Source of the DNA: a candidate division LCP-89 bacterium B3_LCP
Lineage (GTDB): Bacteria > Electryoneota > B3-LCP
Length of the DNA: 64,000 nt
Reading direction: 5' to 3'
Assembly: GCA_005223185.1 (NCBI GenBank)
Contig: NJBN01000007.1
Location: forward strand, 1-64,000
In this document: in pieces, positions 13,042 to 64,000 of the stretch
Position numbering within the stretch: position 1 is the stretch's first letter
Layout of the letters: every line of letters begins with the position of its first letter
Translations under genes and position numbers: made by a program
The notes under the pieces: model-generated
Databases searched by the model: none
The model's input: only the letters and a program-made list of their open reading frames with translations
Told to the model about the DNA's origin: nothing

Positions 13042-13044
13042 CCT

Positions 13045-18184: not shown

Positions 18185-18319
18185 TTCCACCTCCGTGAGT
18201 TGTACGCATTTTCAGTATATTTCATGTATTTAGAAAGCTACATAATAACAATGATAATGTCAAGAGAATTCTATGGGATTCCCTGCAAATGATTTAGCAG
18301 GTTTATTACAACGACTCAA

Positions 18320-19534
18320 TCAGGTTATGCTCAAAGCAGGGATTTTATGCTTTTTACCGATTTCGGCAGCCTCCTCTCCTATATGAACGATAGCTGTGAT
18401 GTCGTTTTTATCGAGTTTATTCAATTCAATATTGCCATGTACACGCCACTCTCTCTCCTTTGTCCAGTCCTGTTTTCCCGAACCAGCCATCTGAAAGAAG
18501 GAGCGGTCGCCTTCACTTAAGGAATCATACTTAGCAATGTCGCCGTATAGCGCTGGTCTAGCGCCCAACGCCTCCAGTCTCGACCTCTTGATGGCTATAC
18601 CATAAGGCTCAAATGTCCAGCGTCTTAAGCCCACTCGCCACCTGATCAATTTCGACAGATCTTCCGGTGGCCTGGCAGTGAAAGGGACCACGGCATATCC
18701 ACCGCGTATCATTCTGGTGGAAGCGCGAATTACTTTTTCTGAAAAGATGCGCATGAGCGTTTCCATTCCTTGATTGTCAGATGGTTTACTCTCCATCATA
18801 CGCCCGAAATGTTCACATCTCTTCTCATCGGGCCAGGGACCTACGCAGGAACGCGTCCAATGGATCAGATACTCCTCTGGCTTGTACCATTCTGGTAACG
18901 CAATTCTCTCAGGTAGTTTAGGCCTTCTGTTTGGAGGGGATTTCTTATATTGAACTTCGAGTTCCCTGGAAATATCAGTTTCTGGCAGTTCCTCATGAGA
19001 AAGATATCTTTCGAAATTGCCCCCCGGTCGTATGGAGTTTTTGATAAGTCGCTGGCTTAAGGCGAAAACCCAGTTATCCCGCAGAGCATTGGTCTCGGTA
19101 TGCTTCATACTTCTCCTTATAACCAAAGGACGAATTGCTAAGGTTTTAGCATCTTCCAGACCTAGACCAATTATAGCTTTGGTGCGCAGAACGTTGAAAT
19201 TCTGAGCACTACCCGGAGGGAATATCAGAATTATGGGAAGACCGATTCTATTTCCCGCCCATGTCAGGAAATCCCAGGAAGTTGTGCCTAAGCTTGTTAC
19301 CAGGACGTTATTGCGCAAATCCTCGCTGCGAAGAGAGTTGAGTGTGTTGGCTATCCACTCATCGTGTTTATTCATGCGCGGTGACTGGCGGGAATTCAAG
19401 ATGGTAAATCGGCTTTTTTTAAGAAGATCAGTGGGACCGCAGAGGACGATAGGTGAGGATTCTTGAAGGAAAAAAGGGTGTGGTATTACAGCAGGGAAGT
19501 CATTCTGACTCATGCAGAACGCAAGCTTGTGCAT
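18320..19534 (-). CDS. Hypothetical protein with a divergent DprA/Smf-like (SLOG superfamily) Rossmann domain and an uncharacterised C-terminal domain
   Basis: Residues ~40-110 (FTILNSRQSP ... NVLVTSLGTTSWDFLTWAGNRIGLPIILIFPPG) follow the DprA strand-helix-strand pattern but lack GxARGID; the C-terminal half (DWTKEREWRVHGNIEL) has no recognisable family. Confidence 0.45.
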   Translation of the reverse strand: MHKLAFCMSQNDFPAVIPHPFFLQESSPIVLCGPTDLLKKSRFTILNSRQSPRMNKHDEWIANTLNSLRSEDLRNNVLVTSLGTTSWDFLTWAGNRIGLPIILIFPPGSAQNFNVLRTKAIIGLGLEDAKTLAIRPLVIRRSMKHTETNALRDNWVFALSQRLIKNSIRPGGNFERYLSHEELPETDISRELEVQYKKSPPNRRPKLPERIALPEWYKPEEYLIHWTRSCVGPWPDEKRCEHFGRMMESKPSDNQGMETLMRIFSEKVIRASTRMIRGGYAVVPFTARPPEDLSKLIRWRVGLRRWTFEPYGIAIKRSRLEALGARPALYGDIAKYDSLSEGDRSFFQMAGSGKQDWTKEREWRVHGNIELNKLDKNDITAIVHIGEEAAEIGKKHKIPALSIT

Positions 19535-37537: not shown

Positions 37538-37642
37538 ATGGAACCGTTCTTGCATTAACGAAGACAATGCGGCTTCATGGAAACTTTTGCTCACCGAAAT
37601 ATCTTTAAATAAAGACCGGGGTTTAATTCCCATTACTGAATA

Positions 37643-40090: not shown

Positions 40091-41458
40091 ATGAAGCAGA
40101 TATTAATAGTAGATGACGACGCTTCCAGCCGAGAATCCATTATGCTGAACTTGCACAGGGATGGCTGGCAATTCTCAGAAGCCGCTGACGGGCAGGAAGC
40201 TCTAAATATCGTCAATGCTGAACATCCGGATTTAGTGATCTGTGACATCCGCATGCCCCGCATGGACGGCCTGGAATTCCTGAAACTTGCCAGAAAGCAG
40301 AATCCCGACCTCCAGGTAATCATGATCACTGCTTATGATGATATGCAGACTACGGTTAAAGCCATTCAATCGGGCGCTTATGAATACGTGCGCAAACCGA
40401 TCGATCTGATCGATCTTGAGATCACCATACAGCGAGCGCTCGAGACACAGGATATGAGCAGACGCCTCGATGGATTTGCCAATACGATCGGCAAGGATTT
40501 TCGTATCGACAACATAATCGGTAAATCATCCGGTATGCTGGAAGTCTTCAAAATAATCGGCGCAGTGTCCAAATCTAATGTAACAGTATTAATCAGGGGA
40601 GATTCCGGCACTGGAAAAGAGCTGATCGCTAAAGCCATCCATTATAACAGCCCCTACAGAGATCATCCCTTTATCCCTATCAACTGCACGGCTATCCCGG
40701 AAAACCTGATTGAATCGGAACTTTTCGGACATGAGAAAGGATCATTCACCGGAGCGGTAACACAGAGCAAAGGAAAATTTGAGTTGGCTGGTGAAGGAAC
40801 CATCTTTTTAGATGAAATCGGTGATATGCCCCTGCAGCTACAAACCAAGCTGTTACGAGTTATCCAGGAAAGGACCTTCGAACGTGTCGGCGGCAACCGT
40901 TTACTACGTTCTGAAGCACGAATTATAGCGGCTACACATCAGGATTTGGAGAGACTTCTCGAATTGGAAAATTTCCGGGAAGATCTGTACTACCGCCTCC
41001 GTGTGGTTGAATTAAACGTTCCACCGCTACGAAACCGACGGGAGGATATTCCCCTATTGATTGAATACTTAATTGAGAAGATCAACAGGGATTTGGGCAC
41101 CAACGTGCGCAAAGTATCGCCTAGCTTAATCAACATGCTGACCGGTATGACCTGGAGAGGCAACGTACGGGAACTCGAAAACCGGCTGCGCCGAGCGATC
41201 GTCCTGTGCAGAGGAGAAGTTCTCATACCGGACGATTTTGAAGAAACTGCTGAGACCGCCGCCACACCCTCTGATACTGTATCCCTCATGCCGTTTAGCA
41301 CTCTGGCTGAAGCAGAACGCGATTACATTCTCAAGGTCTTGCAACACAATAACTGGAATAAGAAGAGAACCTGCGAAGTCTTAAGCATAGCCCGCACTAC
41401 CCTCGACAGAAAGATAGAACAATATCAGCTTAAAGCGGAAAACAAATCGGAAGAATGA
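40091..41458 (+). CDS. Sigma-54-dependent response regulator (NtrC family)
   Basis: REC domain (D at DIRMP), AAA+ sigma-54 interaction domain with GSFTGA, C-terminal Fis-type HTH. Confidence 0.9.
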   Translation: MKQILIVDDDASSRESIMLNLHRDGWQFSEAADGQEALNIVNAEHPDLVICDIRMPRMDGLEFLKLARKQNPDLQVIMITAYDDMQTTVKAIQSGAYEYVRKPIDLIDLEITIQRALETQDMSRRLDGFANTIGKDFRIDNIIGKSSGMLEVFKIIGAVSKSNVTVLIRGDSGTGKELIAKAIHYNSPYRDHPFIPINCTAIPENLIESELFGHEKGSFTGAVTQSKGKFELAGEGTIFLDEIGDMPLQLQTKLLRVIQERTFERVGGNRLLRSEARIIAATHQDLERLLELENFREDLYYRLRVVELNVPPLRNRREDIPLLIEYLIEKINRDLGTNVRKVSPSLINMLTGMTWRGNVRELENRLRRAIVLCRGEVLIPDDFEETAETAATPSDTVSLMPFSTLAEAERDYILKVLQHNNWNKKRTCEVLSIARTTLDRKIEQYQLKAENKSEE

Positions 41459-41656: not shown

Positions 41657-41750
41657 TTGTAATACCTTTTTCTAATAACTCCTCCATTCTGGCACCTATC
41701 TTGCGATAACATCCCTTGATTATCCCCTAATTTAAGGTAATTCTACTCTT

Positions 41751-43301
41751 ATGAGAGTAAAAGTGATCATTGGTCTGCTGGCGCTGATAGTGATAATCTC
41801 TCTGGCGCTATCATTACAGACCGACCGTAAGGTAACGACCAAATCCGATCAAGCCTATAATTACTTCTTAGCTGGCATCGAGGACGCCAACCGCCTCTAC
41901 AACAACGAGGCGCTGGAGAACTTAGAAGCGGCTGTAATGCTGGATAGCTCTTTCGCTTCCGCCTGGGCTTACCTGAGTAAGTACTATGCGATATTAGGGC
42001 AAAAGGAAGAAGCCTCAATCGCCGCTGATTTAGCCTTCGACTTATCACAAGACCTGCCTGAAAGAGAACGCCTGAATATTCACCTGGTCACCTGTGGATT
42101 GCGCGATGATTGCGACAATTTCGACGAAATCCTGGACTATATGCTAAAGGAATTTCCGGAAGAATTAGACCCTCATCTATATAAAGCTGGCATCTATTGG
42201 AAGGAAAACAAGATTGTTGAGGCGATTGAAGAATACGAGACCGCCTATCAAATCAACCCCAACTATGCTTTAATTTACAATGAGTTGGGTTATCTGCATG
42301 CTACCATTGGGGATCTAAAAAAAGCCATTGAATACATGAAGAAATACGTATTCATTGCACCCGATCAGGCAAATCCTCATGATTCTTTGGGCGACATTCT
42401 CATCAGAGTGGGTCGCTATAGAGAGGCGATCGATCACCTTCGCAGCGCTCTCTCCGTAAAACCGAATTTAGCGGCAGAACCTAACAACTTAGGACACGCT
42501 ATTTATCTGCACCTGGCTACAGCTAATCTACGATTGGGTCGCTTAAAACAAACTGAACAGCATTTAAATCGTGCCATTGAATTAGCTCCGAATGAATGGA
42601 TGAAGAATCAGGTAATAACGGCAACGACAGAACTGTTCAGAACGCAAAGAAAATATGCAGAAGGCATAGAATCATTGAAGCGCGTTCACAGTCCGGAGAA
42701 GTTTTACAAGAACATGGTTCTCGAACATTTGGCCTATCTATATTCGGATATCAACAGGGACGCTGAGATCATGGAATTGATTGACAAACTTGAAAGATAT
42801 CTCTTTGAGATTATCCGGGAAGCTGGTGGGGATTCTATTGAAGTAACGTCTGAGAACTATAAAGAGTATATTAGCATGTCCTGCAAGAGCGAAGGAATCA
42901 ATCGTAGATTGGAGATGCTTCGAGTTTTCCACGATCGTGCCAGTGGAAAACTTATCCAGGCAAAAGAGCAAACTGCTGCCCTTATCGAACATGAAAAGAA
43001 CTTCGAAGCGAAGATGTTCTGGACATTTTTCAAGGCGGGTTTGGAACATGATCTGGGGGATTATCAGGCCGCCTTGCTGACATTGGAACCATTCATAGAA
43101 ACGAATCCCAACGATCCTGACGTTACCATTCTTCAGGCAAAAGTCTTAATGAAAAGCGATCAGTATGACCAGGCGAAGGATCTGCTAAAAGCATTTCTAA
43201 TATCTACTGATGGCGCTGATGAAGATTGGATCCCAGCCCACGAAGCCAGGGAGTTGCTAAAACGTCTAGAAGAGACAACTTTAACACTTACTGATCATTA
43301 G
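41751..43301 (+). CDS. Membrane-anchored TPR-repeat protein
   Basis: N-terminal TM helix; multiple TPR-like helical repeats (AYNYFLAG ... YNELGYLHA ...). Confidence 0.7.
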   Translation: MRVKVIIGLLALIVIISLALSLQTDRKVTTKSDQAYNYFLAGIEDANRLYNNEALENLEAAVMLDSSFASAWAYLSKYYAILGQKEEASIAADLAFDLSQDLPERERLNIHLVTCGLRDDCDNFDEILDYMLKEFPEELDPHLYKAGIYWKENKIVEAIEEYETAYQINPNYALIYNELGYLHATIGDLKKAIEYMKKYVFIAPDQANPHDSLGDILIRVGRYREAIDHLRSALSVKPNLAAEPNNLGHAIYLHLATANLRLGRLKQTEQHLNRAIELAPNEWMKNQVITATTELFRTQRKYAEGIESLKRVHSPEKFYKNMVLEHLAYLYSDINRDAEIMELIDKLERYLFEIIREAGGDSIEVTSENYKEYISMSCKSEGINRRLEMLRVFHDRASGKLIQAKEQTAALIEHEKNFEAKMFWTFFKAGLEHDLGDYQAALLTLEPFIETNPNDPDVTILQAKVLMKSDQYDQAKDLLKAFLISTDGADEDWIPAHEARELLKRLEETTLTLTDH

Positions 43302-43945: not shown

Positions 43946-44079
43946 GTCGCCCAACTTCACTTTATTTTTATCCTGAATCGAAAATCCTACAGAAAAAGTT
44001 TCATTATCCTGCAATTTAATGGCAGTATTCTTGCTACCATCTTTATAAATCTGTGAATTAAAACCTCGAGGTAAACAAA

Positions 44080-47000
44080 ATGTGTATCCCCCGTATGACC
44101 TTCCTTCATATCGTTGTAGCAGTTGTTACCTGCAGTTTTCTAACATCAGTTTCAAACGCTCTGGTGCCGATCCCCAAAGAAATGGTTGAGATGCGTATCA
44201 GCGGCAACCCAGCAAACGGTTCCATCATCCATCTGGATTTTGCAGAATACTGGCAATCTGCCGGTGAAATTACCGGTGATGAAGCGCTCAGTTTCTGGGT
44301 GACACTGCCCGACCTGGGTCAACCTTCGGCCAAAGTACGTGTTTTTACTTCTGATGGCATTTTACATACAATTTCAGAGTGCGCCCAAATAGGGGAACCT
44401 GCAATCATTCGGGGAGTCCGCGTTGCCTCTGTGACGATACACCCCGTCATACAGGGAGATTCCGGTTCAGAAGCAGTCGAAGAAATGGATATAATGATAT
44501 CCGCTTCCGGCACCGGAATAAACGAAGTTTATCAGGATAGACGATCACAGGCTTTCGATGGAATAATCAGCTCCTTTGTAGTGAATCCACCAGGTGTAAA
44601 CGCCACGGATGATTTTGAACAGGAACACATGCTGATAATATGCCCGGATTTTGCCCAGGAGATAATCACGCCTTTCGCAGAATGGAAGCGCCGCAAGGGG
44701 CTGGAAGTAACGCTCTCGACATTGACGGAAATTGGCATCACAGCCGACGATTTTGAAGGGATGAAGGATTACATCCAGGAAGCGTACGACACCTGGCTAA
44801 ACCCACCCGATTTCGTCCTGCTTGCGGGCGATGAAACCGTACTCCCAGTCAGAGCGGACTGGACTGACGATCCCCACACGATGTTTTCAACCGCTTCCGT
44901 TCCGGGTACCTACTTAGATGATAACTACTTCGCCTGCGTTGATGGATCGGATTTCTTCCCGGATATTATCTTAGCGCGTTGGCCTTTACCCAATGAAGGC
45001 TATTCCTATGCCTATGTGTCCGCAAAGACTATGCGTTATGAAATGGCTCCAACTTTGGACCAAACAGATTGGTATCAGCACTCTGCGGTTACTGCTCAGG
45101 GCCCACTATATGATCCCACAAACCTGACTCAACGTGAAACTAAACTTTACACTAAGGATCTTATGTTGAACTTCGGATTTGCCGAGGTCGATACGCTCTT
45201 CGATCCTTATTCACCAGACCAACTTGTGCAGTGGGTAAATGACGGTTTGAGTTATGTTAACCACCGCGGCGCAGGTTGGAGTTTCGGTTGGGCTGGGAAT
45301 AATTTCTATATAGATCATGTACTGGAATTACAGAATTCCTTCATGCTTCCCGTTGTGACCGGTATCGGTTGTGGTGTGGGACTCTTCGGTGATCCCGGCA
45401 TCTGCTTCGGAGAAGCCTGGATGTGGGTTGTTGGCACTATGACCAACCATCGCGGTGCTATTGCGTTTATAGGTCCAGGTTGGAACACGCATACCTTTTA
45501 CAATGATTCCCTTGATATTGGACTCTATGAATCGATCTTCGTAGAATCAGAACCACGAATAGGAGCATCCCTAATTGACAGCAAGCTGTTCATGTATGAT
45601 GCCTTCGATGATTACATTCCTCTTGATCCGGACATAGAGGAAATACTGCGAGTGGCATTCAACCAGTATTATCTCTTCTCCGATCCAGAACTGAAACCCT
45701 ACAACAACGTCCCTGCTGGATTGCAGACAGCAGAAACAATTCCCGTAGCACTGGGACAGGGTAGCTTTTCCCTGACTTTTACCATTCAAGACGGCGCTGG
45801 CTTGCCCTTTGAAGGTGCCCAGGTCTGCCTCTACCACCCGGAAGATTTTCAATCTGTTGATCTCACCGATGCCAACGGCGAGGTAGAGCTGGATTGGGAT
45901 ACCAACACTGAATCTTCCTTCGTTTATTTCACGGTTACTGCACACAATCACGCCCCTATAGTTGATAGCATAGCAGTAATAGGTGATCAGGCTTATGTGC
46001 TACACTATGACTTCGAACTTGATGATTCTATGGGTGGAAACGGAGATGGAGGCATATCCCCGGGCGAATCAGCCGACTGGATCGAGACAGTTAGAAACTG
46101 GGGATTGAATGATGCATCAGAAGTTAATGCCATCTTGACCAGCCTGAGTCCGACAGCAATCGTAATACAGAACAGCTCATACTTCGGTGACATTCCTGCA
46201 GAAGCCACCATGATGGGAACTCCGAATTTCGTAATTTCAGTCGATCCGGAAAACTATACAGTTGGGGATTCTCTGGAGTTCCAGATAGACGTCTCCGATG
46301 CATTGGATTCCTGCTGGACCTCTTATGTGGACGTACCCCTGGTAACACCTATATTAAGCTACATTTATGCAGCGCCTGACATTTATACCAATGGACTGAT
46401 AGACCGAGGTGAAACTTGCGAAATGTTCATCGGTGTTTATAACAACGGTTTCGTTGACATAGATGATGCCGTCCTAGAACTTCACACTGATGATCCTTAC
46501 ATCGAAATAATAGACGGCACGATTGACATAGGTCCTTTTAATGCGGGTTCAATGTACCTGAGCTACTATGCTTCTCCGCAGGATTCCTTCATAGTGAGTG
46601 CCAGCTTGTACGCGCCTATGTACTATGAGGCTGAATTCTGGATGAAGATCAGTTCAGAACAGGCAACCTACTTCTATGAAGATTCGGTTTCCTTTGTTCT
46701 TCCCATAGGGCAAATCTTTGAAGGCGACCCCACATTCGATTCCCTGGAAACCTACTTCGGTTATGAATCGCTGGATACCTTATACGAAGAATGCCCAACC
46801 TACGAATGGTTCGAGATCGATCCTGATTCGGGTGGTCCGGGATATGTCCTCCCATTCTCCTATGAAACACAAACATTGAAGATCGAACTTCCCTTCACGT
46901 TCACGTATTGGGGTGAAGATTTCGATAGCTTGACTGTGAGCGCCGACGGTTGGATCATGCCGGGGGTAACATCTGCAGTCGCACCTGATTACCAGCACTT

Positions 47001-47718
47001 TCCCTATGAGGATGAAATTACAGGAATAATCGCTCCTATGTGGCTTGATTTATGGAATCCCACATCAGAAACCGGGAAGATATGCAGTTATTACGATGAT
47101 GTTAATGGAAAGCTCTACATAGAATATAACGGTGTCTCAAATGACTTCTCGCCCATCTTCAAGGAAACGTTCCAGATTGTACTCTTCGACCCAACAGAAC
47201 AACCAACCCTGACCGGCGATAGTGAATTCATGTTCTACTATCGAAGTCTATCCATCTTTGGCCTTCAGTACTGTTCTGTTGGTCTAGAGAGTCCAGATCA
47301 AAACATTGGCATCGAGTACTCATATGGTATGACTTTCGCATTCACAGTAAATGGGATTGAAGACAGCTTAGCCATCAAGTGGACCACCGATCCACCACCC
47401 AGTTTCCTGTACGTACCACCGCTACCTGATCCCGGAACGGTGATGCAGATACCTGATGAGTTCACCTTCGCAGAGCCTTACCCCAATCCGTTCAATCCAA
47501 CAACAATGCTGAGGTTCGCTATTCCGGTTGCAGGAAAGGTGGAACTGGAGATATTCAACGTCAGGGGACAGCGCGTAGCAGAACTTTACAGCGGTAAAGT
47601 AAACGCTGGCTGGCACCGCTTCGAATTTGACGGATCAAACCTGGGATCCGGAATCTACTTCGCCCGTTTAATTTATCAGGATCAACCCACGGTGCATAAA
47701 TTACTCCTGGTCAAGTAA
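44080..47718 (+). CDS. Peptidase C25 (gingipain-like) family protein with T9SS C-terminal sorting domain
   Basis: C25 catalytic-domain pattern (DFVLLAGDETVLP ... YVNHRGAGWSFGW ... TGIGCGVGLF); C-terminus PYPNPFNPTTMLRF ... KLLLVK; 1212 aa. Confidence 0.75.
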   Translation: MCIPRMTFLHIVVAVVTCSFLTSVSNALVPIPKEMVEMRISGNPANGSIIHLDFAEYWQSAGEITGDEALSFWVTLPDLGQPSAKVRVFTSDGILHTISECAQIGEPAIIRGVRVASVTIHPVIQGDSGSEAVEEMDIMISASGTGINEVYQDRRSQAFDGIISSFVVNPPGVNATDDFEQEHMLIICPDFAQEIITPFAEWKRRKGLEVTLSTLTEIGITADDFEGMKDYIQEAYDTWLNPPDFVLLAGDETVLPVRADWTDDPHTMFSTASVPGTYLDDNYFACVDGSDFFPDIILARWPLPNEGYSYAYVSAKTMRYEMAPTLDQTDWYQHSAVTAQGPLYDPTNLTQRETKLYTKDLMLNFGFAEVDTLFDPYSPDQLVQWVNDGLSYVNHRGAGWSFGWAGNNFYIDHVLELQNSFMLPVVTGIGCGVGLFGDPGICFGEAWMWVVGTMTNHRGAIAFIGPGWNTHTFYNDSLDIGLYESIFVESEPRIGASLIDSKLFMYDAFDDYIPLDPDIEEILRVAFNQYYLFSDPELKPYNNVPAGLQTAETIPVALGQGSFSLTFTIQDGAGLPFEGAQVCLYHPEDFQSVDLTDANGEVELDWDTNTESSFVYFTVTAHNHAPIVDSIAVIGDQAYVLHYDFELDDSMGGNGDGGISPGESADWIETVRNWGLNDASEVNAILTSLSPTAIVIQNSSYFGDIPAEATMMGTPNFVISVDPENYTVGDSLEFQIDVSDALDSCWTSYVDVPLVTPILSYIYAAPDIYTNGLIDRGETCEMFIGVYNNGFVDIDDAVLELHTDDPYIEIIDGTIDIGPFNAGSMYLSYYASPQDSFIVSASLYAPMYYEAEFWMKISSEQATYFYEDSVSFVLPIGQIFEGDPTFDSLETYFGYESLDTLYEECPTYEWFEIDPDSGGPGYVLPFSYETQTLKIELPFTFTYWGEDFDSLTVSADGWIMPGVTSAVAPDYQHFPYEDEITGIIAPMWLDLWNPTSETGKICSYYDDVNGKLYIEYNGVSNDFSPIFKETFQIVLFDPTEQPTLTGDSEFMFYYRSLSIFGLQYCSVGLESPDQNIGIEYSYGMTFAFTVNGIEDSLAIKWTTDPPPSFLYVPPLPDPGTVMQIPDEFTFAEPYPNPFNPTTMLRFAIPVAGKVELEIFNVRGQRVAELYSGKVNAGWHRFEFDGSNLGSGIYFARLIYQDQPTVHKLLLVK

Positions 47719-49804: not shown

Positions 49805-50461
49805 TTAGTAATTCTTCACTTCAAATCGGATTACCTGCTGCATAGGGACTTTCACGAAACGGTCGCGCTGGCGCCCCGGCTTAAATTTCATGGCTGATAT
49901 GGCTTTAGTACCTGCTTCACCGAAGCCTAACCCCTGCGGTCTTTCCTGAAAGACCTTGATGTTGGTCGGCTTACCAGTTTCATCGACTATGAACTGAATG
50001 ATACACACTCCACCAACACCAGCATTAGCAGCCATTTCAGGAAATAGATTATTCCTCTGGATGTAATCGTAGATAGCTTGCGAACCACCGATTAACTCCG
50101 GTTTCTGTTCCACCGCGAAGAAATCAACAATATCGCCACCTTCTGGCGGCGGTGGTGGCGGTTCATCGCCCAGGTCCCAGTCGGTGTCATCGATGGTCAT
50201 ATCATCTTCAATGTCCGCATCATCGGACTCAATGGGTATGGTCGGTCTGGCAGGAGGCGGTGGTCGCTTTATCTGGTGGGTGATGGGTATGTCTTCTACT
50301 TTGATGATTACTTCTTCGACTTTTGCCTTTTTGGCCGTAATCGCCATCTGTTTGGATGATATGAATGTCAGCGTCATCAGCAGGAGGACAACAACTAAAG
50401 ACGCCTCTATGATCTTGGGATACTGCAGACGCAGATCCACTTGCGGATATTTCTTTACCAT
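49805..50461 (-). CDS. tonB: TonB family energy transducer
   Basis: N-terminal TM anchor, Pro-rich spacer (PPPPARPTIP ... EPPPPPPEGG), C-terminal TonB domain. Confidence 0.8.
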   Translation of the reverse strand: MVKKYPQVDLRLQYPKIIEASLVVVLLLMTLTFISSKQMAITAKKAKVEEVIIKVEDIPITHQIKRPPPPARPTIPIESDDADIEDDMTIDDTDWDLGDEPPPPPPEGGDIVDFFAVEQKPELIGGSQAIYDYIQRNNLFPEMAANAGVGGVCIIQFIVDETGKPTNIKVFQERPQGLGFGEAGTKAISAMKFKPGRQRDRFVKVPMQQVIRFEVKNY

Positions 50462-50470
50462 TTCTTCGCG

Positions 50471-50875
50471 TTATTTGAAGCGAGTTGAATAGTTAATACG
50501 GAGTGCGTACGCGTCTCGTAACTGCTCCTGTATGTCGCTGACCAGCCCCATTTTCACTTCCTTATCTATCTTCAATGAGACGATCAGCCGCAGGTTAGCC
50601 GCGTATTTCTCACCGACGATCTGCGAGATGGAACTGACCGGCACGATCTTATCATCAATGGAAATACGGCTGTTCTTATCCGTCCAAACGTATGTGATGT
50701 TGCGTTTGGCTTCTACTTTTTCCGTGGATCGAGCCGCTGGAGTAAGTATGGGAAGACCGCGGAATTCCTTGAATACCGTTGTGACCATGAAGAAGATAAT
50801 CAGCATGAAGATGATATCCGGCATCGAAGCGGTCGGAATAGAAGCGTCGGCTCCTTGTTTCTTTTCGAATTTCAT
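50471..50875 (-). CDS. exbD: ExbD/TolR biopolymer transport protein
   Basis: Single N-terminal TM helix (IIFMLIIFFMVTTVF) plus a periplasmic domain. Confidence 0.85.
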   Translation of the reverse strand: MKFEKKQGADASIPTASMPDIIFMLIIFFMVTTVFKEFRGLPILTPAARSTEKVEAKRNITYVWTDKNSRISIDDKIVPVSSISQIVGEKYAANLRLIVSLKIDKEVKMGLVSDIQEQLRDAYALRINYSTRFK

Positions 50876-50881
50876 AACTGA

Positions 50882-51307
50882 TTACTTCTCCGGTTCAGCA
50901 ATGGATATCTTGGTGGCACCAGCAACCTTTACGTTATCCAGAACCTGTATATAGGTATTGTAATCTGTATCGCGAGCAGTCTGTATGGAAACAATCAATA
51001 TCGGTTTGCCATCCTTGTCATAACCCTTCTCTTCGATCTTCTGCTTAATTAGCTCCTGGATCTGGGTAACGTCAATGGGCTCATTGTCGAGTAAAATCTG
51101 ACCTGCAGCGTTTACTAACAGGTTGGCAATGTTGCCTTTCTTGATCTTCACCTGTTCTCCGCCCTTCTCCGGCAGAGTCAGGTTTATACCTTTATCCATG
51201 TCTATTGTCGTCGTCACGAGAAAGAAGATCATCAAGAGGAAAGCAATATCCGCCATCGATGAGGTGAAGATTTCGGTAGTACCTTTTTTTCTTTTTTTAA
51301 TCAGCAT
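50882..51307 (-). CDS. exbD: ExbD/TolR biopolymer transport protein (second copy)
   Basis: IAFLLMIFFLVTTTI TM helix plus a periplasmic domain. Confidence 0.85.
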   Translation of the reverse strand: MLIKKRKKGTTEIFTSSMADIAFLLMIFFLVTTTIDMDKGINLTLPEKGGEQVKIKKGNIANLLVNAAGQILLDNEPIDVTQIQELIKQKIEEKGYDKDGKPILIVSIQTARDTDYNTYIQVLDNVKVAGATKISIAEPEK

Positions 51308-51339
51308 GCTTTTTTTCGATTTGCACGGATTATTTCTAA

Positions 51340-51972
51340 TTAGCCGGCATTTGCCTGAGTGTCGCCGCGTTGCGTCTCATCAATGTAATCAACCAATTCG
51401 ACAGTAGCTTCTTCCATATCAATGACGAGCTTGTCAACACGCGAGACGAAGTAGTTGTGGAATACCTGGATAATCATCGCCACAATCAGACCGAAAAGCG
51501 TAGTCAACAAGGCTTCGGAAATGCCGCTCGCCACGATGGACGGGGATATGTCATTGGCTTTAGCGATGTCTTCGAAAGATTTGATCATCCCGGAAACTGT
51601 ACCGGTAAACCCTAACATAGGTGCAATGGCGATGACCGTGGAGAGCCAAACTAGATTTTTCTCCAGAAACGCCATTTCTATAGAACCTGAAGTCATTATC
51701 GCCTTTTCGACGTGGTCCAGACCGCGATCAAACCTCATTAGTCCAGCGTGCAATACCGAAGCTACCGGTCCACGAGTGTTGGCGCAGACCTCCAATGCAG
51801 CATCAACTCCGCCATCAGTCATGGCTTGACGAATATTGAGCACGAACTTGCGTGTATTGACAGTTGCCCTGGTCAAAGTCCACAATCTTTCCAATGTGAA
51901 CATCAGACCAAAAATAAAGAGAGCGAGAATGGGCCACATAAATGGACCACCATTTAGGAAAAGCTCAACCAT
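51340..51972 (-). CDS. exbB: ExbB/TolQ/MotA proton-channel protein
   Basis: Three-TM MotA/TolQ/ExbB topology. Confidence 0.85.
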   Translation of the reverse strand: MVELFLNGGPFMWPILALFIFGLMFTLERLWTLTRATVNTRKFVLNIRQAMTDGGVDAALEVCANTRGPVASVLHAGLMRFDRGLDHVEKAIMTSGSIEMAFLEKNLVWLSTVIAIAPMLGFTGTVSGMIKSFEDIAKANDISPSIVASGISEALLTTLFGLIVAMIIQVFHNYFVSRVDKLVIDMEEATVELVDYIDETQRGDTQANAG

Positions 51973-56545: not shown

Positions 56546-57697
56546 TCAGTTTTTCTTGATAGCAAACATTTTACCGGGTAGTTGAACCACCCAGCCTTTC
56601 ATTTCCAATCCTAAAAGGTCAGCCAGAACGGAATTAACCGGTATATCCATCTCTCTGGTCAACTGATCTATATGAATCGGATCAAACGATAGATACTTCG
56701 CAACTGCTTCTTCAGATGCGTTCAACTTAGGCAGCGGTGTAGAGACGTCCTTCCCTGCTTCACCGATGGCGGAAAGATTTATCTCCTGCAGGATATCATC
56801 TGCGCAGGTGACCAGACCGGCTCCCTCTTTTATCAACATGTGCGGTCCCACCGAACGCCTGTCTTCGACGTTTCCCGGCAGAGCGAAAACGTCCCGGTTC
56901 TGATCCAGTGCAAATTTTGCCGTAATCAAAGCCCCGGAATCCCTTCCGCCCTGAACCACTAACACAGCCTCACTTAAACCACTGATGATTCGGTTTCTTC
57001 GGGGAAAGAAGCGCGCATCCGGCTTGACGCCGGGTAGAAATTCAGAAATTAAAGCGCCGTTTGATTCGATTTTTTCTGCAAGCGATTTATTTTCAGTGGG
57101 GTATATGCGGTCAATGCCGCAACCGAACACTGCATAGGTTCTGCCGTTTGCCTGAAGTGCGCCCCCATGCGCTGAAGAATCGATTCCCCTTGCCATGCCA
57201 CTGACTACACCCACTCCACGTGCCGCTAACTGTTCCGCTATGCTATGCCCCTGAGAAATGCCGTAAGCGGTGGGAGTTCTGGTCCCCACTATGGCAATGC
57301 ACTTTTCGGCAACATCCGGTAGACTACCCCGTACGAAAAGCAGCGCTGGCGGGTCATGTATCTCCTTGAGACGATGAGGATACCGTTCATCCCAGATGGA
57401 CACCACGGAAGCGCCACAGGATTGCAGCTTCTCCAGCAGTTTTTCTCCAGTTCCATCTGGTGAAGTTTGTGAAATCGCAGCGGCCGTGTTGGTATCGACT
57501 CCAGGCACGCTGCAAATAGATTTCTCTGTGGCTTTAAAAACATCAACAGGACCGCCAAAGGCTTTCAGCAGAGCCCGAAAACGAGCTGATCCAACTCCTT
57601 CAACGCTCCATAGAGCCAAAGTTCCCGGAAGATCTTCTTCAATCGCCTTACCCGGGGAGACCCCATGACTGAAGAGTGAAGATTGATCTCTACTCAT
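56546..57697 (-). CDS. dprA: DNA processing protein A (DprA/Smf)
   Basis: IVGTRTPTAYG ... VVSGMARGIDSSAHGGAL ... RNRIISGLS Rossmann domain. Confidence 0.85.
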   Translation of the reverse strand: MSRDQSSLFSHGVSPGKAIEEDLPGTLALWSVEGVGSARFRALLKAFGGPVDVFKATEKSICSVPGVDTNTAAAISQTSPDGTGEKLLEKLQSCGASVVSIWDERYPHRLKEIHDPPALLFVRGSLPDVAEKCIAIVGTRTPTAYGISQGHSIAEQLAARGVGVVSGMARGIDSSAHGGALQANGRTYAVFGCGIDRIYPTENKSLAEKIESNGALISEFLPGVKPDARFFPRRNRIISGLSEAVLVVQGGRDSGALITAKFALDQNRDVFALPGNVEDRRSVGPHMLIKEGAGLVTCADDILQEINLSAIGEAGKDVSTPLPKLNASEEAVAKYLSFDPIHIDQLTREMDIPVNSVLADLLGLEMKGWVVQLPGKMFAIKKN

Positions 57698-59437: not shown

Positions 59438-60847
59438 ATGCGCCGTGCGCGAATCTTAATAGTAGATGACGAAGCGGATATTTGCATTCTCTTAGCAGAA
59501 GCATTAGCTTCAGAGGAATGGATAGTTGAGTGGACCACGCGTCCTCTGCAAGCTTTGGACAGCATAAAATCCGAGCCCTTCGATCTCGTACTATTGGACA
59601 TCAAAATGCCGGAGATTTCCGGTCTGGAACTACTCCCACAGATTAAACAGGCTTCTCCTGAAACTGCGGTTACAATGATGAGCGCCTACGGCAATGTCGC
59701 CATGGCAGTGGAAGCCATGAAGGAAGGTGCTGAAGATTATTTAGAGAAGCCTTTTCAGGATTTCGAACAAGTGCGTTTAGCCATCAGCAGATTGGTAGCG
59801 ACTGCCAGAATGCGCATGGAAAACCGCATTCTCAAACAGCAGCTAGAAGAGAAATTCAGCCTGGATGGATTAGTAAGCGCCAGCCCCAGGATGCAGGAAG
59901 TTTTCGCTTTAGTGCGCAAAGTTGCGCCCATAAACACTACAACCCTTATATACGGTGAAACAGGCACCGGAAAAGAACTCATAGCCAGGACGCTGCACAG
60001 AAACAGCAAACGTTCCGAAGGTCCATTTGTCAGCGTAAACTGCGGAGGGTTACCAGAAGGACTTTTAGAATCACTGCTTTTTGGTCACGAAAAGGGTGCT
60101 TTTACCGGCGCCATAAGACGATCCAGAGGCTATTTCGAAGAGGCTGAAGGAGGTACATTATTTTTAGATGAAGTTGGCGAGACTCCTGCCTCTCTACAAG
60201 TTAAGCTTTTGCGTGTACTGCAGGAAAGAACATTCCAGCGGGTTGGTGGCGCCGAAGAGATCACCGCAGAAGTCCGCCTCATAGCTGCAACTAACAAAGA
60301 TTTAGAAAGTGAAGTAGTGAACAACAAATTCAGACAGGATCTGTTTTATAGATTAAATGTAATAACAATCGCCTTACCATCCCTTCGTGAGAGAAAGGAA
60401 GACATTCCCTTTCTGACGAAGTTCTTCATAGATAAGTATGCCAAGGCTTTCGAACGATCGGTGCATAATATCACTTCAAAAGCGGTTCATCACCTTTGTT
60501 CTTTCGACTGGCCCGGAAACGTAAGACAGTTAGAAAATACCATAGAGAGAGCCGTTGCGTTATCAGATAGTGAACAACTCGATCTTTCTGATCTGACAGC
60601 CGAATTGCAGGATCAAACCGGAGATTGGATTTCAGCTATCATCAACCTGCCTTTAAAACAGGCAAAACAAGAATTTGAACGGCGCTATCTGATTGAAAAC
60701 CTGAGACTCCACAACGGTAGAGTCACAGATGCGGCGCGGACTGCCGGTCTGCCCCGCCAGAACTACCACAGAAAGATGAAACAATTGGGTTTACCTTCCT
60801 CACGTGAGCTCGCCGATATGGCAAATCTTCAATTAGAACACTCTTGA
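59438..60847 (+). CDS. Sigma-54-dependent response regulator (NtrC/PilR-like), orphan
   Basis: REC domain, AAA+ domain with GAFTGA, C-terminal HTH; no cognate histidine kinase is adjacent. Confidence 0.85.
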   Translation: MRRARILIVDDEADICILLAEALASEEWIVEWTTRPLQALDSIKSEPFDLVLLDIKMPEISGLELLPQIKQASPETAVTMMSAYGNVAMAVEAMKEGAEDYLEKPFQDFEQVRLAISRLVATARMRMENRILKQQLEEKFSLDGLVSASPRMQEVFALVRKVAPINTTTLIYGETGTGKELIARTLHRNSKRSEGPFVSVNCGGLPEGLLESLLFGHEKGAFTGAIRRSRGYFEEAEGGTLFLDEVGETPASLQVKLLRVLQERTFQRVGGAEEITAEVRLIAATNKDLESEVVNNKFRQDLFYRLNVITIALPSLRERKEDIPFLTKFFIDKYAKAFERSVHNITSKAVHHLCSFDWPGNVRQLENTIERAVALSDSEQLDLSDLTAELQDQTGDWISAIINLPLKQAKQEFERRYLIENLRLHNGRVTDAARTAGLPRQNYHRKMKQLGLPSSRELADMANLQLEHS

Positions 60848-60870
60848 ATTTCATTCCAACTGCCACTAAA

Positions 60871-60975
60871 TGCGCATAATTGCGACATCAGCACAATTTT
60901 ATGACAAGTACGTAACACTTGAATTATTAAGTACTAACTATTACTTTATGGGATTTATCGTCGCATTAATGCGAC
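60871..60975. promoter_or_regulatory. Pair of palindromic candidate enhancer (UAS) sites for a sigma-54 activator
   Basis: TGCGCAtaatTGCGAC (60871..60886) and the perfect palindrome GTCGCAttaaTGCGAC (60960..60975), about 90 bp apart and 110-200 bp upstream of the -24/-12 element. Confidence 0.4.
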
Positions 60976-61066
60976 ACTTTTATCCCATTTTCGCATTTTG
61001 ACTTCTGTTTCTTTGAGAAGCATAAAAATGATATTCTATGATCTTTATTATCATAATGTTACAAAA

Positions 61067-61083
61067 TTGGCATAATGATTGTT
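61067..61083 (+). promoter_or_regulatory. Sigma-54 (-24/-12) promoter
   Basis: tTGGCATaatgaTTGTt matches TGGCAC-N5-TTGCW with correct GG-to-GC spacing; about 80 nt upstream of the pilin-like gene. Confidence 0.55.
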
Positions 61084-61159
61084 TATTACAGTAAAAATTT
61101 CGAACTCAGACAAACAAATCAATAACTAATCAATCCAATTCAATGCTTAAGGAGGTATC

Positions 61160-61573
61160 ATGGGTCAGCAACAACTCCTACTCATCGTTCTATCTGTAAT
61201 CATCGTTGGAATCGCGGTAATAGTAGGTATCAACATGTTCGCCGATCAGGCAGCTTCATCGAATCTTGATGCGGTCACTGCCGATCTTATTAACCTGGCT
61301 TCACGTGCACAGCAGCATTTTCGCCGCCCCACAGCTATGGGTGGTGGTGGTGGCACATTCACTCTCTTGTCTGCTGATGCCGCAGGGATGGCATATCTCA
61401 CCTCTCAGCCCACCAATGAGAACGGAGCTTATACGATTACCTCTGCAGGAAATGGCACAAGCGTTTCAGTCAAAGGAATTGGCTCAGAAGATGGTGACAA
61501 GGACGGAACCAACTGTACGGCGACTATTCAGGTTTGGTCAGACAGCATAGCGGTTGTAATTTCGAACCGTTAG
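61160..61573 (+). CDS. Pilin-like protein with a non-canonical N-terminus (putative major pilus subunit)
   Basis: Strong RBS aaggagg; MG-QQQLLLIVLSVIIVGIAVIVG hydrophobic N-terminal helix but no G/FTLIE prepilin motif; lies between the sigma-54 promoter and a strong terminator, upstream of pilC and pilB. Confidence 0.45.
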   Translation: MGQQQLLLIVLSVIIVGIAVIVGINMFADQAASSNLDAVTADLINLASRAQQHFRRPTAMGGGGGTFTLLSADAAGMAYLTSQPTNENGAYTITSAGNGTSVSVKGIGSEDGDKDGTNCTATIQVWSDSIAVVISNR

Positions 61574-61628
61574 GTTCAACAATGAAAACTATCACGGACT
61601 TTCAGCCTCTACCGACGTCCGTTGATAG

Positions 61629-61675
61629 CAGCCGGCGGATCATTACAACGATCCGCCGGCTGGTGAATATTTTTT
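61629..61675 (+). terminator. Rho-independent terminator after the pilin-like gene
   Basis: cagccggcggatc-attacaac-gatccgccggctg followed by a T-run. Confidence 0.65.
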
Positions 61676-61815
61676 AGTACAATAACCGGTAGAATTATTT
61701 CTACAAACAATAATCAAGGTCAGAAATATTCAATTAAGGATTTTATGTCATAAGCAAAGTTCACTAAATAGTAAGATCTACTATCTGATTGGTGTATCTA
61801 CAGGACGGGTTTACC

Positions 61816-63159
61816 ATGGCGGAATTTCGTTACCAGGGGATTGGGTTATCCGGTCGTATGATCCAGGGGATCATTTCGGCGAATAACAAACGTGATGCCA
61901 ACAGACGAGCTGAAGAGATAGCGCAAAGCAGGCGGTTCAAGCTTAGAAACCTGAATCGCAAAGCCACTTTTTTATACAAAGTAAGAAAAGGTCGTGAGGC
62001 TGCAATAAGTGGTCAGCAGAAGGCATTCAGTTCTGATGAAGTTCGCCGCGCTCTGGAAAAAATGGGCTATACGGTAGTTACCATTCAGAAGAAGCTAATT
62101 GACCTCAAATTAAAACCGCCCACCAAAGATGTAGTTATGTTCATCCGGCTTTCAGCCGACCTTCTGCGAGAAAAACTTCCCTACGATGAAATATTAAATC
62201 TTCTGTCCAACGATATGGACAACAAAAGCCTCAAGCAGACTCTGAAGGAAATTCATCAGGATCTGAAAGACGGCAAGGATGGCGTGGAAGTTTTCGGGAA
62301 ACAAGCTGATGCTATCGGAAAGTTCCCTGCCCACATGTTGGGAGTCGCTTCAAAATCAGGAAACATGGTCGAAATATACGAAGCGACAGCTAAGGTTTTA
62401 GAACGCAACGAAGAATTCAAGAAGAACTTGAAGAGCGCTCTGATTATGCCCAGTGTAGTGGTGCTGGCTTTGTTAGGCGCAGTCCTCTTCTACGTAGCCT
62501 ACATCTTTCCGGAAACTGCCAACATGTTCTTAAAGTTCGATATCGAGCTGCCCCCCATGACAGCAGCTACATTGCAAATGTCTGAATGGCTGCAAGACAA
62601 AGCTCTGCTTATTTTAGGAACGATTGTAGGCGCTGGAATATTTTTAGGTAGATTCTTTACAACACAAAAAGGACGTTTCTTCCTTTCAAGATACTTGATA
62701 AAAGTCCCGGTAATAGGAACTTTGATGCATAAGACGTCCATTGAAATATGGTGTCGAGTGTTCTATTCGCTCTATTCAGGATCTGGTGAAAATGTGGAAG
62801 CCATCAGAGTAGCGGCAGAAGCGTGCAGGAGCCCCTATATGGAACACAGGATAAAGGCAGTCGCTTTACCTTTAATGCTGAAGGAAGGGCAGGGGTTGGT
62901 CGAGGCGCTCGAAAAGACGGGAGTTTTTACGAAAAACGCTCTCTCCAGGTTGCATTCCGGCGCCGAAACCGGCACTATCAGGGAAACAGCCCTTCAAGTA
63001 GCAAATTACTACGAGAAAGAAACAACGCACAAACTCAGAAACATTATAGATTTAATTCAAGTTTTCATTGCCATGGCAATCATGATAGTCATGACAGCAA
63101 TAACCATAATAAGTTCAGAAACTGCCGTGATAAAGCCAAAAATGCCGGGTGTAGGTTAG
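61816..63159 (+). CDS. pilC: Type IV pilus/T2SS platform protein (PilC/GspF family)
   Basis: Two T2SS-F repeats, three TM helices; start set at MAEFRYQGIGLSG (the track ORF begins nine codons upstream). Confidence 0.85.
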   Translation: MAEFRYQGIGLSGRMIQGIISANNKRDANRRAEEIAQSRRFKLRNLNRKATFLYKVRKGREAAISGQQKAFSSDEVRRALEKMGYTVVTIQKKLIDLKLKPPTKDVVMFIRLSADLLREKLPYDEILNLLSNDMDNKSLKQTLKEIHQDLKDGKDGVEVFGKQADAIGKFPAHMLGVASKSGNMVEIYEATAKVLERNEEFKKNLKSALIMPSVVVLALLGAVLFYVAYIFPETANMFLKFDIELPPMTAATLQMSEWLQDKALLILGTIVGAGIFLGRFFTTQKGRFFLSRYLIKVPVIGTLMHKTSIEIWCRVFYSLYSGSGENVEAIRVAAEACRSPYMEHRIKAVALPLMLKEGQGLVEALEKTGVFTKNALSRLHSGAETGTIRETALQVANYYEKETTHKLRNIIDLIQVFIAMAIMIVMTAITIISSETAVIKPKMPGVG

Positions 63160-63162
63160 TTG

Positions 63163-64000
63163 ATGGCTGTAAAGGAAGACATAAAAAGAGGTACTCGCAG
63201 CGGCGAACTCCTGATAGATAGCGGTGTTATTGATCAGGACCTGTTGGATAAGGCGATTCTGATTCAATTGGCGGAAACCGGTTCTCACAGGAAATTAGGC
63301 GAGATACTTATAGAAGATCTTAACTGTGACCGGCATGAGATCTACAGAGAGTTGGCGCGAATATATGCATTTTCGGAAGTAGATTTAGAGAGGGAAGAAT
63401 TAACAGATCAGCGGAGTCAGTGGATTAAGAACATCTATGAGTCCGTTGATAAGGAACATCGAGATAAGTTAATAAATAACAATATACTTCCGTTCCGTTT
63501 AGATGGTAAAGAAAAAAATACCTTACTGATACTTACAGATGACCCTACTGATCGCGAACGTTTCAAAATAGCACAGAAGATCGGTTTTCGCCGCCTGGAG
63601 CTGGCTTACGCACGCAAGGAACTTGTTAAAAAGTGGATAGAGACAATCTATCCAACGACGAATGAATTTCTGCGGATCATTGAAGAGGTTTCTGGAACAG
63701 TTGAAAATCTTGATGACGGTGGTGGAGAAGAATGTGTTGATGAAGATGTTTTAGATCAGGAGATCAATCAATCATTACTTACAAATTTAATAGAGGGGTG
63801 TCTCGTTGAAGCAGTGCGAAGAGGGGTGTCGGATATTCACATAGTCCCTGGTGCAGGTGGATCTTCAGATTTTCTCTTTCGCGTAGATGGTAAACTGGAA
63901 AAATGGCATACTCAGGATAGCATTAAACCGGAAGCCATCTCAGCAGTTGTCAAGGACCGTTCCAGAAACGTGGATCGTTTTGAGAGAGAGGCTGCTCAGG
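63163..64000 (+). CDS. pilB: Type IV pilus/T2SS assembly ATPase (PilB/GspE family), 5' partial (runs off the window)
   Basis: GspE N-terminal domains; no stop codon before the window end; starts 3 nt after pilC. Confidence 0.8.
   Translation, partial: MAVKEDIKRGTRSGELLIDSGVIDQDLLDKAILIQLAETGSHRKLGEILIEDLNCDRHEIYRELARIYAFSEVDLEREELTDQRSQWIKNIYESVDKEHRDKLINNNILPFRLDGKEKNTLLILTDDPTDRERFKIAQKIGFRRLELAYARKELVKKWIETIYPTTNEFLRIIEEVSGTVENLDDGGGEECVDEDVLDQEINQSLLTNLIEGCLVEAVRRGVSDIHIVPGAGGSSDFLFRVDGKLEKWHTQDSIKPEAISAVVKDRSRNVDRFEREAAQ

Follow-up and report, generated by a model that had tools for sequence, protein, structure and literature searches.

Near the end of the 64,000-nt stretch of DNA analyzed here (the window), candidate division LCP-89 bacterium B3_LCP carries a short gene whose product is identical in sequence to the record TKJ39728.1 (CEE37_10640). 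LCP-89 is a candidate phylum of the FCB group. The gene is preceded by a gene for a sigma-54-dependent response regulator and a candidate promoter, and is followed by a hairpin and by pilC and pilB (Table 1). A sequence-only reading of the locus had listed a sigma-54-like promoter, a strong ribosome binding site, a strong hairpin behind the gene and pilC-pilB downstream, and every one of these features is present. It had also remarked on the absence of the G-F-T-L-I-E motif and of Glu5 from the product, which we confirmed, and it had left the choice between a major pilin of a new class and a membrane-anchored protein co-opted at this locus.

Table 1 Features of the pilin locus, with positions in the window
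Feature	Position	Strand	Details
Sigma-54-dependent response regulator	59438-60847	+	Receiver, AAA+ sigma-54 activator and HTH_8 domains; NCBIfam NtrC/AtoC-type matches ~1e-130
Two related palindromes	60871-60886 (TGCGCATAATTGCGAC); 60960-60975 (GTCGCATTAATGCGAC)	unstranded	Repeat families D2 and I1
Candidate sigma-54-type -24/-12 promoter	61068-61083	+	TGGCAT-N5-TTGTT; 92 nt 5' of the pilin ATG
Shine-Dalgarno sequence	61149-61155	+	AAGGAGG; 4 nt 5' of the pilin ATG; overlaps the in-frame TAA
Gene of the putative major pilin	61160-61573	+	137 aa; N-terminus MGQQQLLLIVLSVIIVGIAV
Intrinsic-terminator-like hairpin and U-run	61629-61676	+	13-bp G+C-rich stem and 8-nt loop (61629-61662); U-run at 61671-61676
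pilC, inner-membrane platform	61816-63159	+	447 aa from ATG 61816; Pfam T2SSF 1.2e-28
pilB, extension ATPase, 5' part	63163-64000	+	N-terminal 279 aa; gene runs past the window end

An in-frame TAA at positions 61148-61150, 12 nt upstream of the pilin ATG, makes a longer leader impossible. The leader is thus limited to Met-Gly at most and has no basic residue, in place of a basic leader ending in Gly(-1). Position 5 counted from Met is Gln instead of the Glu at +5 of prepilins, and no acidic residue occurs within residues 1-28. The protein did not match the N_methyl models (PF07963 and TIGR02532) or any other prepilin model, with Pfam searched up to E = 10 and NCBIfam up to E = 1. The matches to these databases amounted to sub-threshold noise (RicinB_lectin_2, ComP_DUS and SCO2583), among which ComP_DUS (E = 0.035) was the sole pilin-related one. 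A mis-called start of a longer reading frame was considered and rejected, given the TAA 12 nt upstream, the strong Shine-Dalgarno sequence and the same situation in the homologous genes: among the copies in 79 related loci, the longest possible reading frame started exactly at the MG..Q sequence in 106 of 115, and a Shine-Dalgarno-like motif preceded the MG start in 91 of 112. The short N-terminus is hence genuine rather than a product of faulty annotation, and the recurrence of MGQQQLLL-type N-termini across thousands of homologues rules out chance.

In its -12 part, the candidate promoter reads TTGT instead of the consensus TTGC (GT in place of GC). The pattern TGGCAY-N5-TTGT, in its TGGCAC form, was found 74-113 nt upstream of the pilin orthologues in the three closest loci (L001, L002 and L003), and a relaxed sigma-54 motif lay upstream of 15 of 112 pilin copies, compared with a background of 0.0057 per 300 nt. 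Genes of sigma-54 activators directly 5' of the pilin gene are likewise found in L001-L003 and, overall, in 11 loci. The activator in the window is PilR-like by its position, and no histidine kinase (PilS-like) gene adjoins it. The two palindromes upstream of the promoter might, speculatively, be binding sites of this activator; the entire window contains four matches to them with up to four substitutions, two of which are the copies at 60871 and 60960. Their sequence was not conserved in L001-L003, and for this reason we dropped them as conserved activator sites. The hairpin downstream of the pilin gene has a folding energy of -32.5 kcal/mol (z = -5.97, with none of 200 shuffled sequences being as stable) and was missed by a simple terminator scan because the U-run does not adjoin the stem. 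It probably sets a surplus of pilin transcript over pilC-pilB transcript. A search of positions 60700-61900 against Rfam gave no credible match, the only one being a chance match to Ms1 with 17.6 bits, compared with a gathering score of 162.

The structure of the window pilin was predicted with AlphaFold2, using 129 family members as input, and the resulting model had a mean pLDDT of 87.4. It consists of one unbroken helix alpha1 (residues 2-55), a loop with a conserved P57 and G61-G63, and a four-stranded antiparallel sheet. This is the long N-terminal helix with a beta-sheet head which the sequence-only reading had proposed to look for, and not a fold unrelated to pilins. The predicted architecture is that of pilins, with approximately 20 hydrophobic residues that open an alpha1 of about 50 residues, followed by an alpha-beta roll with the four-stranded sheet. 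The best Foldseek match of the model was the full-length PAK pilin (1oqw_A; TM 0.63, probability 0.97, with a weak E-value of 0.07), and the structural neighbours of the predicted fold are pilins. When the family profile was compared with the PDB, nothing significant was detected, and no solved structure of any family member was found there. The best match in this search was the N-terminal helix of Geobacter PilA (E = 0.33); in the gapless register of this weak match, G17, N25 and F27 fall on G14, P22 and F24 of the Geobacter protein, and Gly2 and Gln3 are set at -1 and +1, respectively.

Sequence conservation of the pilin was 90% in residues 1-11, 80% in residues 1-27, 58% in residues 28-56, and 40% in the head (residues 69-137). 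This gradient from the N-terminal helix to the head is the pattern of pilins. With conservation at its highest in the N-terminus, a signal peptide of the ordinary, disposable kind is ruled out; the N-terminal segment also has no basic n-region, so that it has the features of neither a Sec signal nor a signal anchor. The window pilin contains one Cys, which makes a disulfide loop impossible, and 223 of 241 family members contain none or one.

The pilC product matched the NCBIfam models for GspF (9e-42) and PilC (4e-39), in neither case reaching the equivalog cut-off. The pilB fragment was 66% identical over 279 aa to a 598-aa protein with MshEN and T2SSE domains encoded in L001, which is the closest relative with long flanks and was taken as the syntenic reference. 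By scanning one genome per species we confirmed at least 500 related loci, 78 of which were kept. They derive from Ignavibacteriota, Bacteroidota (Chitinophagales and Cytophagia), Calditrichota, KSB1, Zixibacteria, Kryptonia and unclassified MAGs as well as from the cultured Stygiobacter electus. A few loci are labelled as CPR or Actinomycetota and may be binning errors. Both pilC and pilB were present in 56 related loci, with pilC following the pilin gene, and the genes for the platform and the extension ATPase are thus adjacent to it.

Clustering of all reading frames in 79 loci revealed a recurrent operon with the order pilin (one to four tandem copies), pilC, pilB, c4, c5, c6, a second T2SSE gene, c3, c8 and a secretin gene. 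Product sizes are ~170 aa for c4, ~210 aa for c5, ~420 aa for c6 (with a DUF4900 domain) and ~407 aa for the second T2SSE protein, which is PilT-sized. The c3 (~520 aa) and c8 (~297 aa) products occupy the position of PilM/N/O and have no Pfam match, and the Secretin-domain protein of the relatives (Pfam 1e-22) is small, with ~420 aa. The genes of PilT type, for the secretin and with likeness to PilMNO are known from the operons of these relatives, as the window ends within pilB. In L001 the order is pilin, pilC, pilB, c4, a cNMP-binding response regulator, c5, c6, a Big_1-like gene and, 9 kb downstream, another T2SSE gene. By synteny, this gene order must continue beyond the window end in the LCP-89 genome, where CEE37_10665, five locus tags past the pilin gene, is the genome's own c5 orthologue. 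The complete genome of Melioribacter roseus P3M-2 also carries the operon, with two pilin paralogues, pilC, pilB, a PilT-like ATPase, c3, c8 and the secretin. One of its pilins, MROS_0599, is 88% identical to the pilin of S. electus. Together, the predicted pilin fold, the place of the gene as the first and often duplicated one of its operon and the pilin-like conservation gradient bear out the proposal of a major pilin of a new class, and the alternative of a co-opted membrane-anchored protein found no support.

The family to which the window pilin belongs is very large and apparently undescribed in the literature that we covered (open-access papers and bioRxiv), in which we found no account of an MGQQQLLL pilin family or of leaderless type IV pilins. 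A word-indexed search with the window pilin retrieved 3,118 clusters at 90% identity, and the Stygiobacter pilin as query retrieved 5,800. At 50% identity, an exhaustive HMMER scan of the representatives yielded 1,562 clusters with E ≤ 1e-3 and 615 with E ≤ 1e-10. Besides LCP-89, the family occurs in Ignavibacteriota, Bacteroidota, Calditrichota, KSB1, Zixibacteria and Kryptonia. The N-terminus MGQQQLLL recurs nearly throughout the family. All 121 diverse full-length representatives have Met at position 1; Gly2 is found in 116, Gln5 in 120, and Leu-Leu-Leu at positions 6-8 in at least 108 of them. Only two columns, Q5 and G62, are invariant in the alignment of 129 family sequences. Family members are labelled "hypothetical" by NCBI and, in some cases, "Tfp pilus assembly protein PilE" by JGI, and the names they bear in UniProt are assigned by rule, as PilS-N or PilX-N "domain-containing" proteins.

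Three further products of the operon resemble minor pilins and, like the major pilin, have unusual N-termini; a set of the GspH/I/J/K or FimU/PilVWX class is thus present. The c5 protein starts with M-[S/G/A/T...]-x-x-[L/I]-D-[L/M/I]-[V/I]-G-S, in which Asp6 is invariant and position 2 shows no requirement for Gly, most members having S, A, T, V, Q or N there. Its predicted fold is GspJ-like, and its profile sets Asp6 on Glu5 in the N-terminal helix of the Thermus pilin TTHA1219 with a weak E-value of 0.46. Based on the structure prediction, c5 is beyond reasonable doubt a minor pilin of the GspJ/PilW class. Because Asp6 aligns with Glu5 and no Gly rule applies, the only possible leader of c5 is the Met itself, whose excision would put the Asp at +5. 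A profile comparison of c5 with the major pilin was uninformative (hhalign probability 3.7%). Among the c4 proteins, 21 of 28 begin with M-x-x-G-Q and five of 28 with M-G-x-R-E, where the E falls in the same column. For most members this Q/E column is the fifth residue counted from Met; it aligns with Q5 of the major pilin (hhalign probability 60%), and the distance of the G-Q pair from Met is variable (MxxGQ or MxNTGQ). The c6 proteins start with M-(x)-G-[K/R], with the G at position 2 or 3, and continue with a hydrophobic stretch. Counted from Met, the polar residue is hence at position 5 in the major pilin, at 5-6 in c4 and at 6 in c5.

Prepilin peptidase genes were sought within 10 kb on either side of the related pilin genes and in the 64-kb window. 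The clustered reading frames of the 79 loci contained no conserved peptidase gene, and no conserved gene at all beyond those of the operon. In the window, Peptidase_A24 was absent from the 31 reading frames that were covered either by family searches, which included Pfam searches of 20 of them, or by the annotation of a syntenic counterpart. A phmmer search with E. coli GspO, a single distant query of low sensitivity, detected nothing in the window and, up to E = 10, nothing in the 1.3 Mb that the related loci comprise. No reading frame with a canonical G|[FM]T[LI][IV]E motif was present in the same 1.3 Mb, where the pattern had four spurious matches only. At the level of whole genomes, the information on A24 peptidases comes from the annotation statement of one paper, in which both pilA and pilD of the complete M. 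roseus genome are reported as "not found" (PMC3534657). In Bacteroidota, A24 peptidases such as CHU_3197 and others occur in another type IV filament cluster (PMC5553014), and these enzymes could act in trans on the pilins described here.

The system shares many properties with type IVa pili. Like the type IVa major pilins of PAK (1OQW), Thermus thermophilus (PilA4, 6XXD) and Geobacter (PilA-N, 2M7G), the window pilin is small, has a predicted lollipop fold with an alpha1 of ~54 residues and a four-stranded antiparallel sheet, and shows a conserved hydrophobic N-terminal half of alpha1, in which G17 and F27 correspond to G14 and F24. As in type IVa systems, the pilin gene lies beside pilB and pilC, and the relatives' operons contain pilT-like, pilMNO-like and secretin genes. 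The pilA genes of Pseudomonas, Myxococcus and Geobacter are under sigma-54/PilR-type control, which the candidate promoter and the adjacent activator gene suggest for the present gene too. In contrast to type IVa pilins, however, the protein lacks both a basic leader with Gly at its end and the sequence Phe/Met(+1)-Thr-Leu-Ile-Glu, has Gln5 instead of Glu5, and does not match the N_methyl and prepilin models. The hydrophobic segment in front of the Gly landmark is about three residues longer than in Geobacter PilA. The window pilin also differs by lacking a C-terminal disulfide loop and by having a GGG loop after alpha1, and the cluster differs from type IVa systems by the absence of pilD. By predicted fold, machine and probable regulation the system resembles the type IVa pilus, and three hallmarks by which prepilins are defined in sequence are missing from it. 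The c5 protein departs from its own class in a similar manner: compared with the GspJ/PilW proteins TTHA1219 (5G23), XcpW (3NJE), EpsJ (2RET) and GspJ (3CI0), it starts with Met-[S/G/A/T]-x-x-L-Asp and has no leader and no Gly(-1).

Pilins in which Gln follows the cleavage site are known from archaea. In the EppA-processed pilin EpdE of Methanococcus maripaludis and other DUF361 pilins, the Gln stands right after the cleavage Gly, as Gln3 follows Gly2 here; it is perhaps converted to pyroglutamate and may make Glu5 unnecessary. The leader of these substrates, however, is a normal basic one of at least ~10 residues, and EppA is an A24-type peptidase dedicated to them. The machinery described here, on the other hand, includes a secretin and belongs to the bacterial T4aP type, and no sequence relationship to the archaeal pilins was detected. 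Within the same superphylum, the clusters CHU_3191-3201 of Cytophaga hutchinsonii and Fjoh_0611-0622 of Flavobacterium johnsoniae similarly encode a divergent type IV filament system, whose platform, ATPase, secretin and PilMNOP-like genes are poorly recognized by standard models (PMC6668835, PMC5553014). The Cytophaga cluster has the order D-E-O-G-F, with the Peptidase_A24 gene CHU_3197 beside that of the major pseudopilin, and no PilT-like ATPase is listed for it (PMC5553014). Because of its own A24 peptidase, its other gene order and the lack of a listed PilT-like ATPase we consider it a separate system; that the "T2SS" of Cytophaga is the same system as ours was excluded on the grounds of gene order and peptidase.

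These observations make it highly probable that the gene encodes a filament-forming type IV pilin. Our favoured interpretation, to which we assign a probability of about 0.5, is that the protein is the main building block of a pilus which resembles type IVa, is probably retractile and is common in the FCB superphylum, and whose pilins have no cleavable leader. The pilin would enter the inner membrane via its N-terminal hydrophobic helix and would then be extracted and polymerized by the PilC platform and the PilB ATPase. Assembly may be primed by a tip complex of the three non-canonical minor pilins, one of them GspJ/PilW-like, while a PilM/N/O-like alignment complex and the secretin would complete the machine and the PilT-like ATPase would retract the fibre. 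Transcription of the pilin gene would start at the sigma-54 promoter, driven by the adjacent activator of the NtrC/PilR type, and the hairpin behind the gene would let pilin mRNA outnumber pilC-pilB mRNA.

We further infer that the pilins are made essentially mature: the initiator Met, alone or together with Gly, would be all that corresponds to a leader, processing would go no further than removal of this Met, and no prepilin peptidase would be needed. The invariant Gln5 would stand in for Glu5 in the filament core, with Q/E5 or D6 in this role in the minor pilins, and a neutral Gln would suit an N-terminus without the canonical charge neutralization. The absence of a Gly rule in c5, the place of the polar residue at 5-6 from Met in all three classes, the lack of A24 genes near the operons and the report of pilD as "not found" in M. 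roseus suggest such leaderless processing, with about even odds that the pilin can do without endoproteolytic removal of a leader. We are slightly less confident that a whole, very widespread FCB lineage of type IV pili works without prepilin peptidase, with its major and minor pilins translated in the mature form and Gln in the place of Glu5.

The most serious alternative, which we regard as less probable, is a prepilin with a leader of two residues. An enzyme of the prepilin peptidase type, be it an A24 enzyme encoded elsewhere or one that has escaped recognition, would cut Met-Gly from Gln, and the Gln exposed in this way may form pyroglutamate, similar to the archaeal EpdE. Such a cleavage is suggested by the Gly2 found in 116 of the 121 diverse representatives. 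Gly2 conservation, given as 97%, exceeds what Met excision alone would need, and together with the G-Q pair of c4 at its variable distance from Met and the G in the M-(x)-G-[K/R] start of c6 it looks like a G(-1) rule. The gapless Geobacter PilA register, with G2 at -1 and Q3 at +1, is in line with such a cleavage, as is the existence of A24 peptidases in Bacteroidota, albeit within a separate cluster. The minor pilins, in contrast, do not follow the rule uniformly, as position 2 of the GspJ-like c5 is mostly S, A, T, V, Q or N. With cleavage, moreover, the polar residue would come to lie at +3 (major pilin) and at +1 or +3 (c4), and in c5 it would have no consistent place. Cleavage would also require an enzyme for which no A24 gene was found in the 79 loci and whose gene pilD is reported as missing from the complete M. 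roseus genome. To our knowledge, there is no precedent for a two-residue leader without a basic residue. Both leaderless processing and cleavage after Gly2 depart from every characterized pilin.

It is considerably less probable that the operon builds a short periplasmic pseudopilus, with the protein as major pseudopilin of a T2SS-like secretion device derived from T4aP. The same option was raised by Denise et al. 2019 for a different divergent cluster, which is found in Bacteroidetes and branches with T4aP (PMC6668835); in Cytophaga this cluster has effects on the use of cellulose and on the protein profile of the outer membrane (PMC5553014). The small size of the secretin (~420 aa) would also fit a pseudopilus. 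However, the Cytophaga cluster is a different system with another gene order and its own A24 peptidase, and most of our loci encode the second, PilT-sized T2SSE ATPase (~407 aa). Retractile T4aP typically have such an ATPase, which is not known from T2SS. The frequent presence of two to four divergent tandem pilin copies, together with the gene's own candidate promoter and terminator-like hairpin, fits an abundant and varied surface fibre better than a pseudopilus. That the protein is no filament subunit at all, being a bitopic membrane protein or a secreted protein with an ordinary removable Sec signal peptide, is very improbable: the lack of a class III signal peptide and of a Pfam pilin match, and the few distant relatives in which a Sec or lipoprotein signal peptide precedes the head domain (P0146, P0211, P0259 and P0261), are outweighed by the conservation of residues 1-11 (90%, compared with 40% in the head, the reverse of what a disposable signal would show), the continuous helix 2-55 with a pilin head in the model, the pilins as structural neighbours and the place of the gene at the head of a pil operon.

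In the textbook view, four parts are common to all type IV filaments: pilins with class III signal peptides, the peptidase acting on prepilins, the ATPase for assembly and the platform protein. Glu5 is treated as near-essential for filament assembly. The family described here, which is thousands strong, keeps the fold and the machine but has given up the leader and Glu5, and the peptidase is probably missing too. If the lineage is indeed peptidase-free, the prepilin peptidase would not be a universal core part of the type IV filament superfamily, and these pili would have been overlooked as a rule by genome surveys in which PilD or a class III signal peptide is a requirement. Since the family escapes annotation, pilus gene sets appear "incomplete" in genome papers, as for M. 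roseus (PMC3534657). Twitching, adhesion to polymers, DNA uptake and other traits that depend on pili are probably under-called in abundant lineages of sediments, soils and wastewater. Carriers of the family are available in culture with Melioribacter roseus, Stygiobacter electus and Rosettibacter firmus, and the family makes it possible to ask which purposes the leader, N-methylation and Glu5 actually serve.

The head domain of the pilin contains a DxDxDG-like loop (residues 110–118, EDGDKDGTN; window 61487–61513), which resembles a calcium-binding motif. This loop was found in 118 of the 241 members of the pilin family, and the AlphaFold2 model of the pilin has its lowest confidence in the same block (pLDDT 78). 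A second loop, P-x-x-x-G-G-G-G-x-x-F, follows helix alpha1 (residues 57–67; window 61328–61360). Within the family Pro57, G61-G62-G63 and F67 are nearly invariant and G62 is invariant, and to our knowledge this loop has no counterpart in characterised pilins.

The head domain is reused outside pilins, since among the family-search matches P0122, P0146, P0211, P0255, P0259 and P0261 it was found behind Sec or lipoprotein-type signal peptides (e.g., MNKTRWILILTSLLIGCS) and also as three to five tandem copies in proteins of 376–581 aa. A few family members are located on contigs binned to phyla outside the FCB group, namely Kerfeldbacteria (locus L005, where no pilC adjoins the pilin gene), Actinomycetota (locus L006), Nitrospira (match P0038) and Patescibacteria (match P0049). 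These contigs were probably mis-binned; alternatively, the pilin genes on them may have been acquired by horizontal transfer.

In locus L082, from the Melioribacter roseus type strain (CP003557.1), the secretin gene of the pil operon is split into two ORFs of 74 aa (locus positions 17333–17557) and 338 aa (17560–18576), and it is unbroken (414 aa; 17331–18575) in L081, a nearly identical metagenome contig. The type strain may carry a frameshifted gene or a pseudogene, or its sequence may contain an error at this point. Inside the pil operons of L001 (14343–15251), L002, L003, L007, L011 and L043, all from an LCP-89/Zixibacteria-like clade, one gene encodes a response-regulator receiver joined to a cyclic-nucleotide-binding domain. 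This gene lies between the minor pilin genes c4 and c5 in L001–L003, which are the loci closest to the window, and after pilB in the other three.

Two palindromes of related sequence, spaced 89 nt apart, lie 92–200 nt upstream of the −24 element of the pilin promoter. They are possible binding sites of the adjoining sigma-54 activator, and their sequences were not conserved in L001–L003. Matches to the sigma-54-like pattern TGGCAY-N5-TTGC numbered eight in the whole window versus 4.5 expected, and three one-mismatch matches are located just 5′ of other ORFs.

Palindromes, further sigma-54-like sites and other genes in the window
Feature	Position	Strand	Remark
16-nt palindrome TGCGCATAATTGCGAC	60871–60886		
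16-nt palindrome GTCGCATTAATGCGAC	60960–60975		
TGGCAY-N5-TTGC, one mismatch	37539–37554		PDZ/GAF histidine kinase with sigma-54 response regulator, ORF 37643–41458
TGGCAY-N5-TTGC, one mismatch	41690–41705		TPR protein, ORF 41751–43301
TGGCAY-N5-TTGC, one mismatch	44020–44035		Peptidase_C25 protein, ORF 44080–47718
dprA (DNA_processg_A)	56546–57697	−	a few genes upstream of pilin, on the opposite strand
Flagellin (Flagellin_N/C)	1174–2007	−	
MoxR AAA_3 and DUF58/VWA pair	12151–14046	−	
TonB and two ExbD proteins	49805–51972	−	identified among the scanned ORFs; the range also takes in an adjoining 210-aa ORF, 51340–51972

The gene dprA belongs to a block (obg-dprA-DUF362-NTP_transf-S41 protease) whose synteny is shared with L001–L004, and a link of dprA to DNA uptake via the pilus is only suggestive. 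The Peptidase_C25 protein carries a T9SS C-terminal sorting domain. Because flagellin and the other components are encoded in the same window, the organism appears, judging from its gene content, to possess flagella and T9SS cargo as well as the pilus encoded by the pilin gene.
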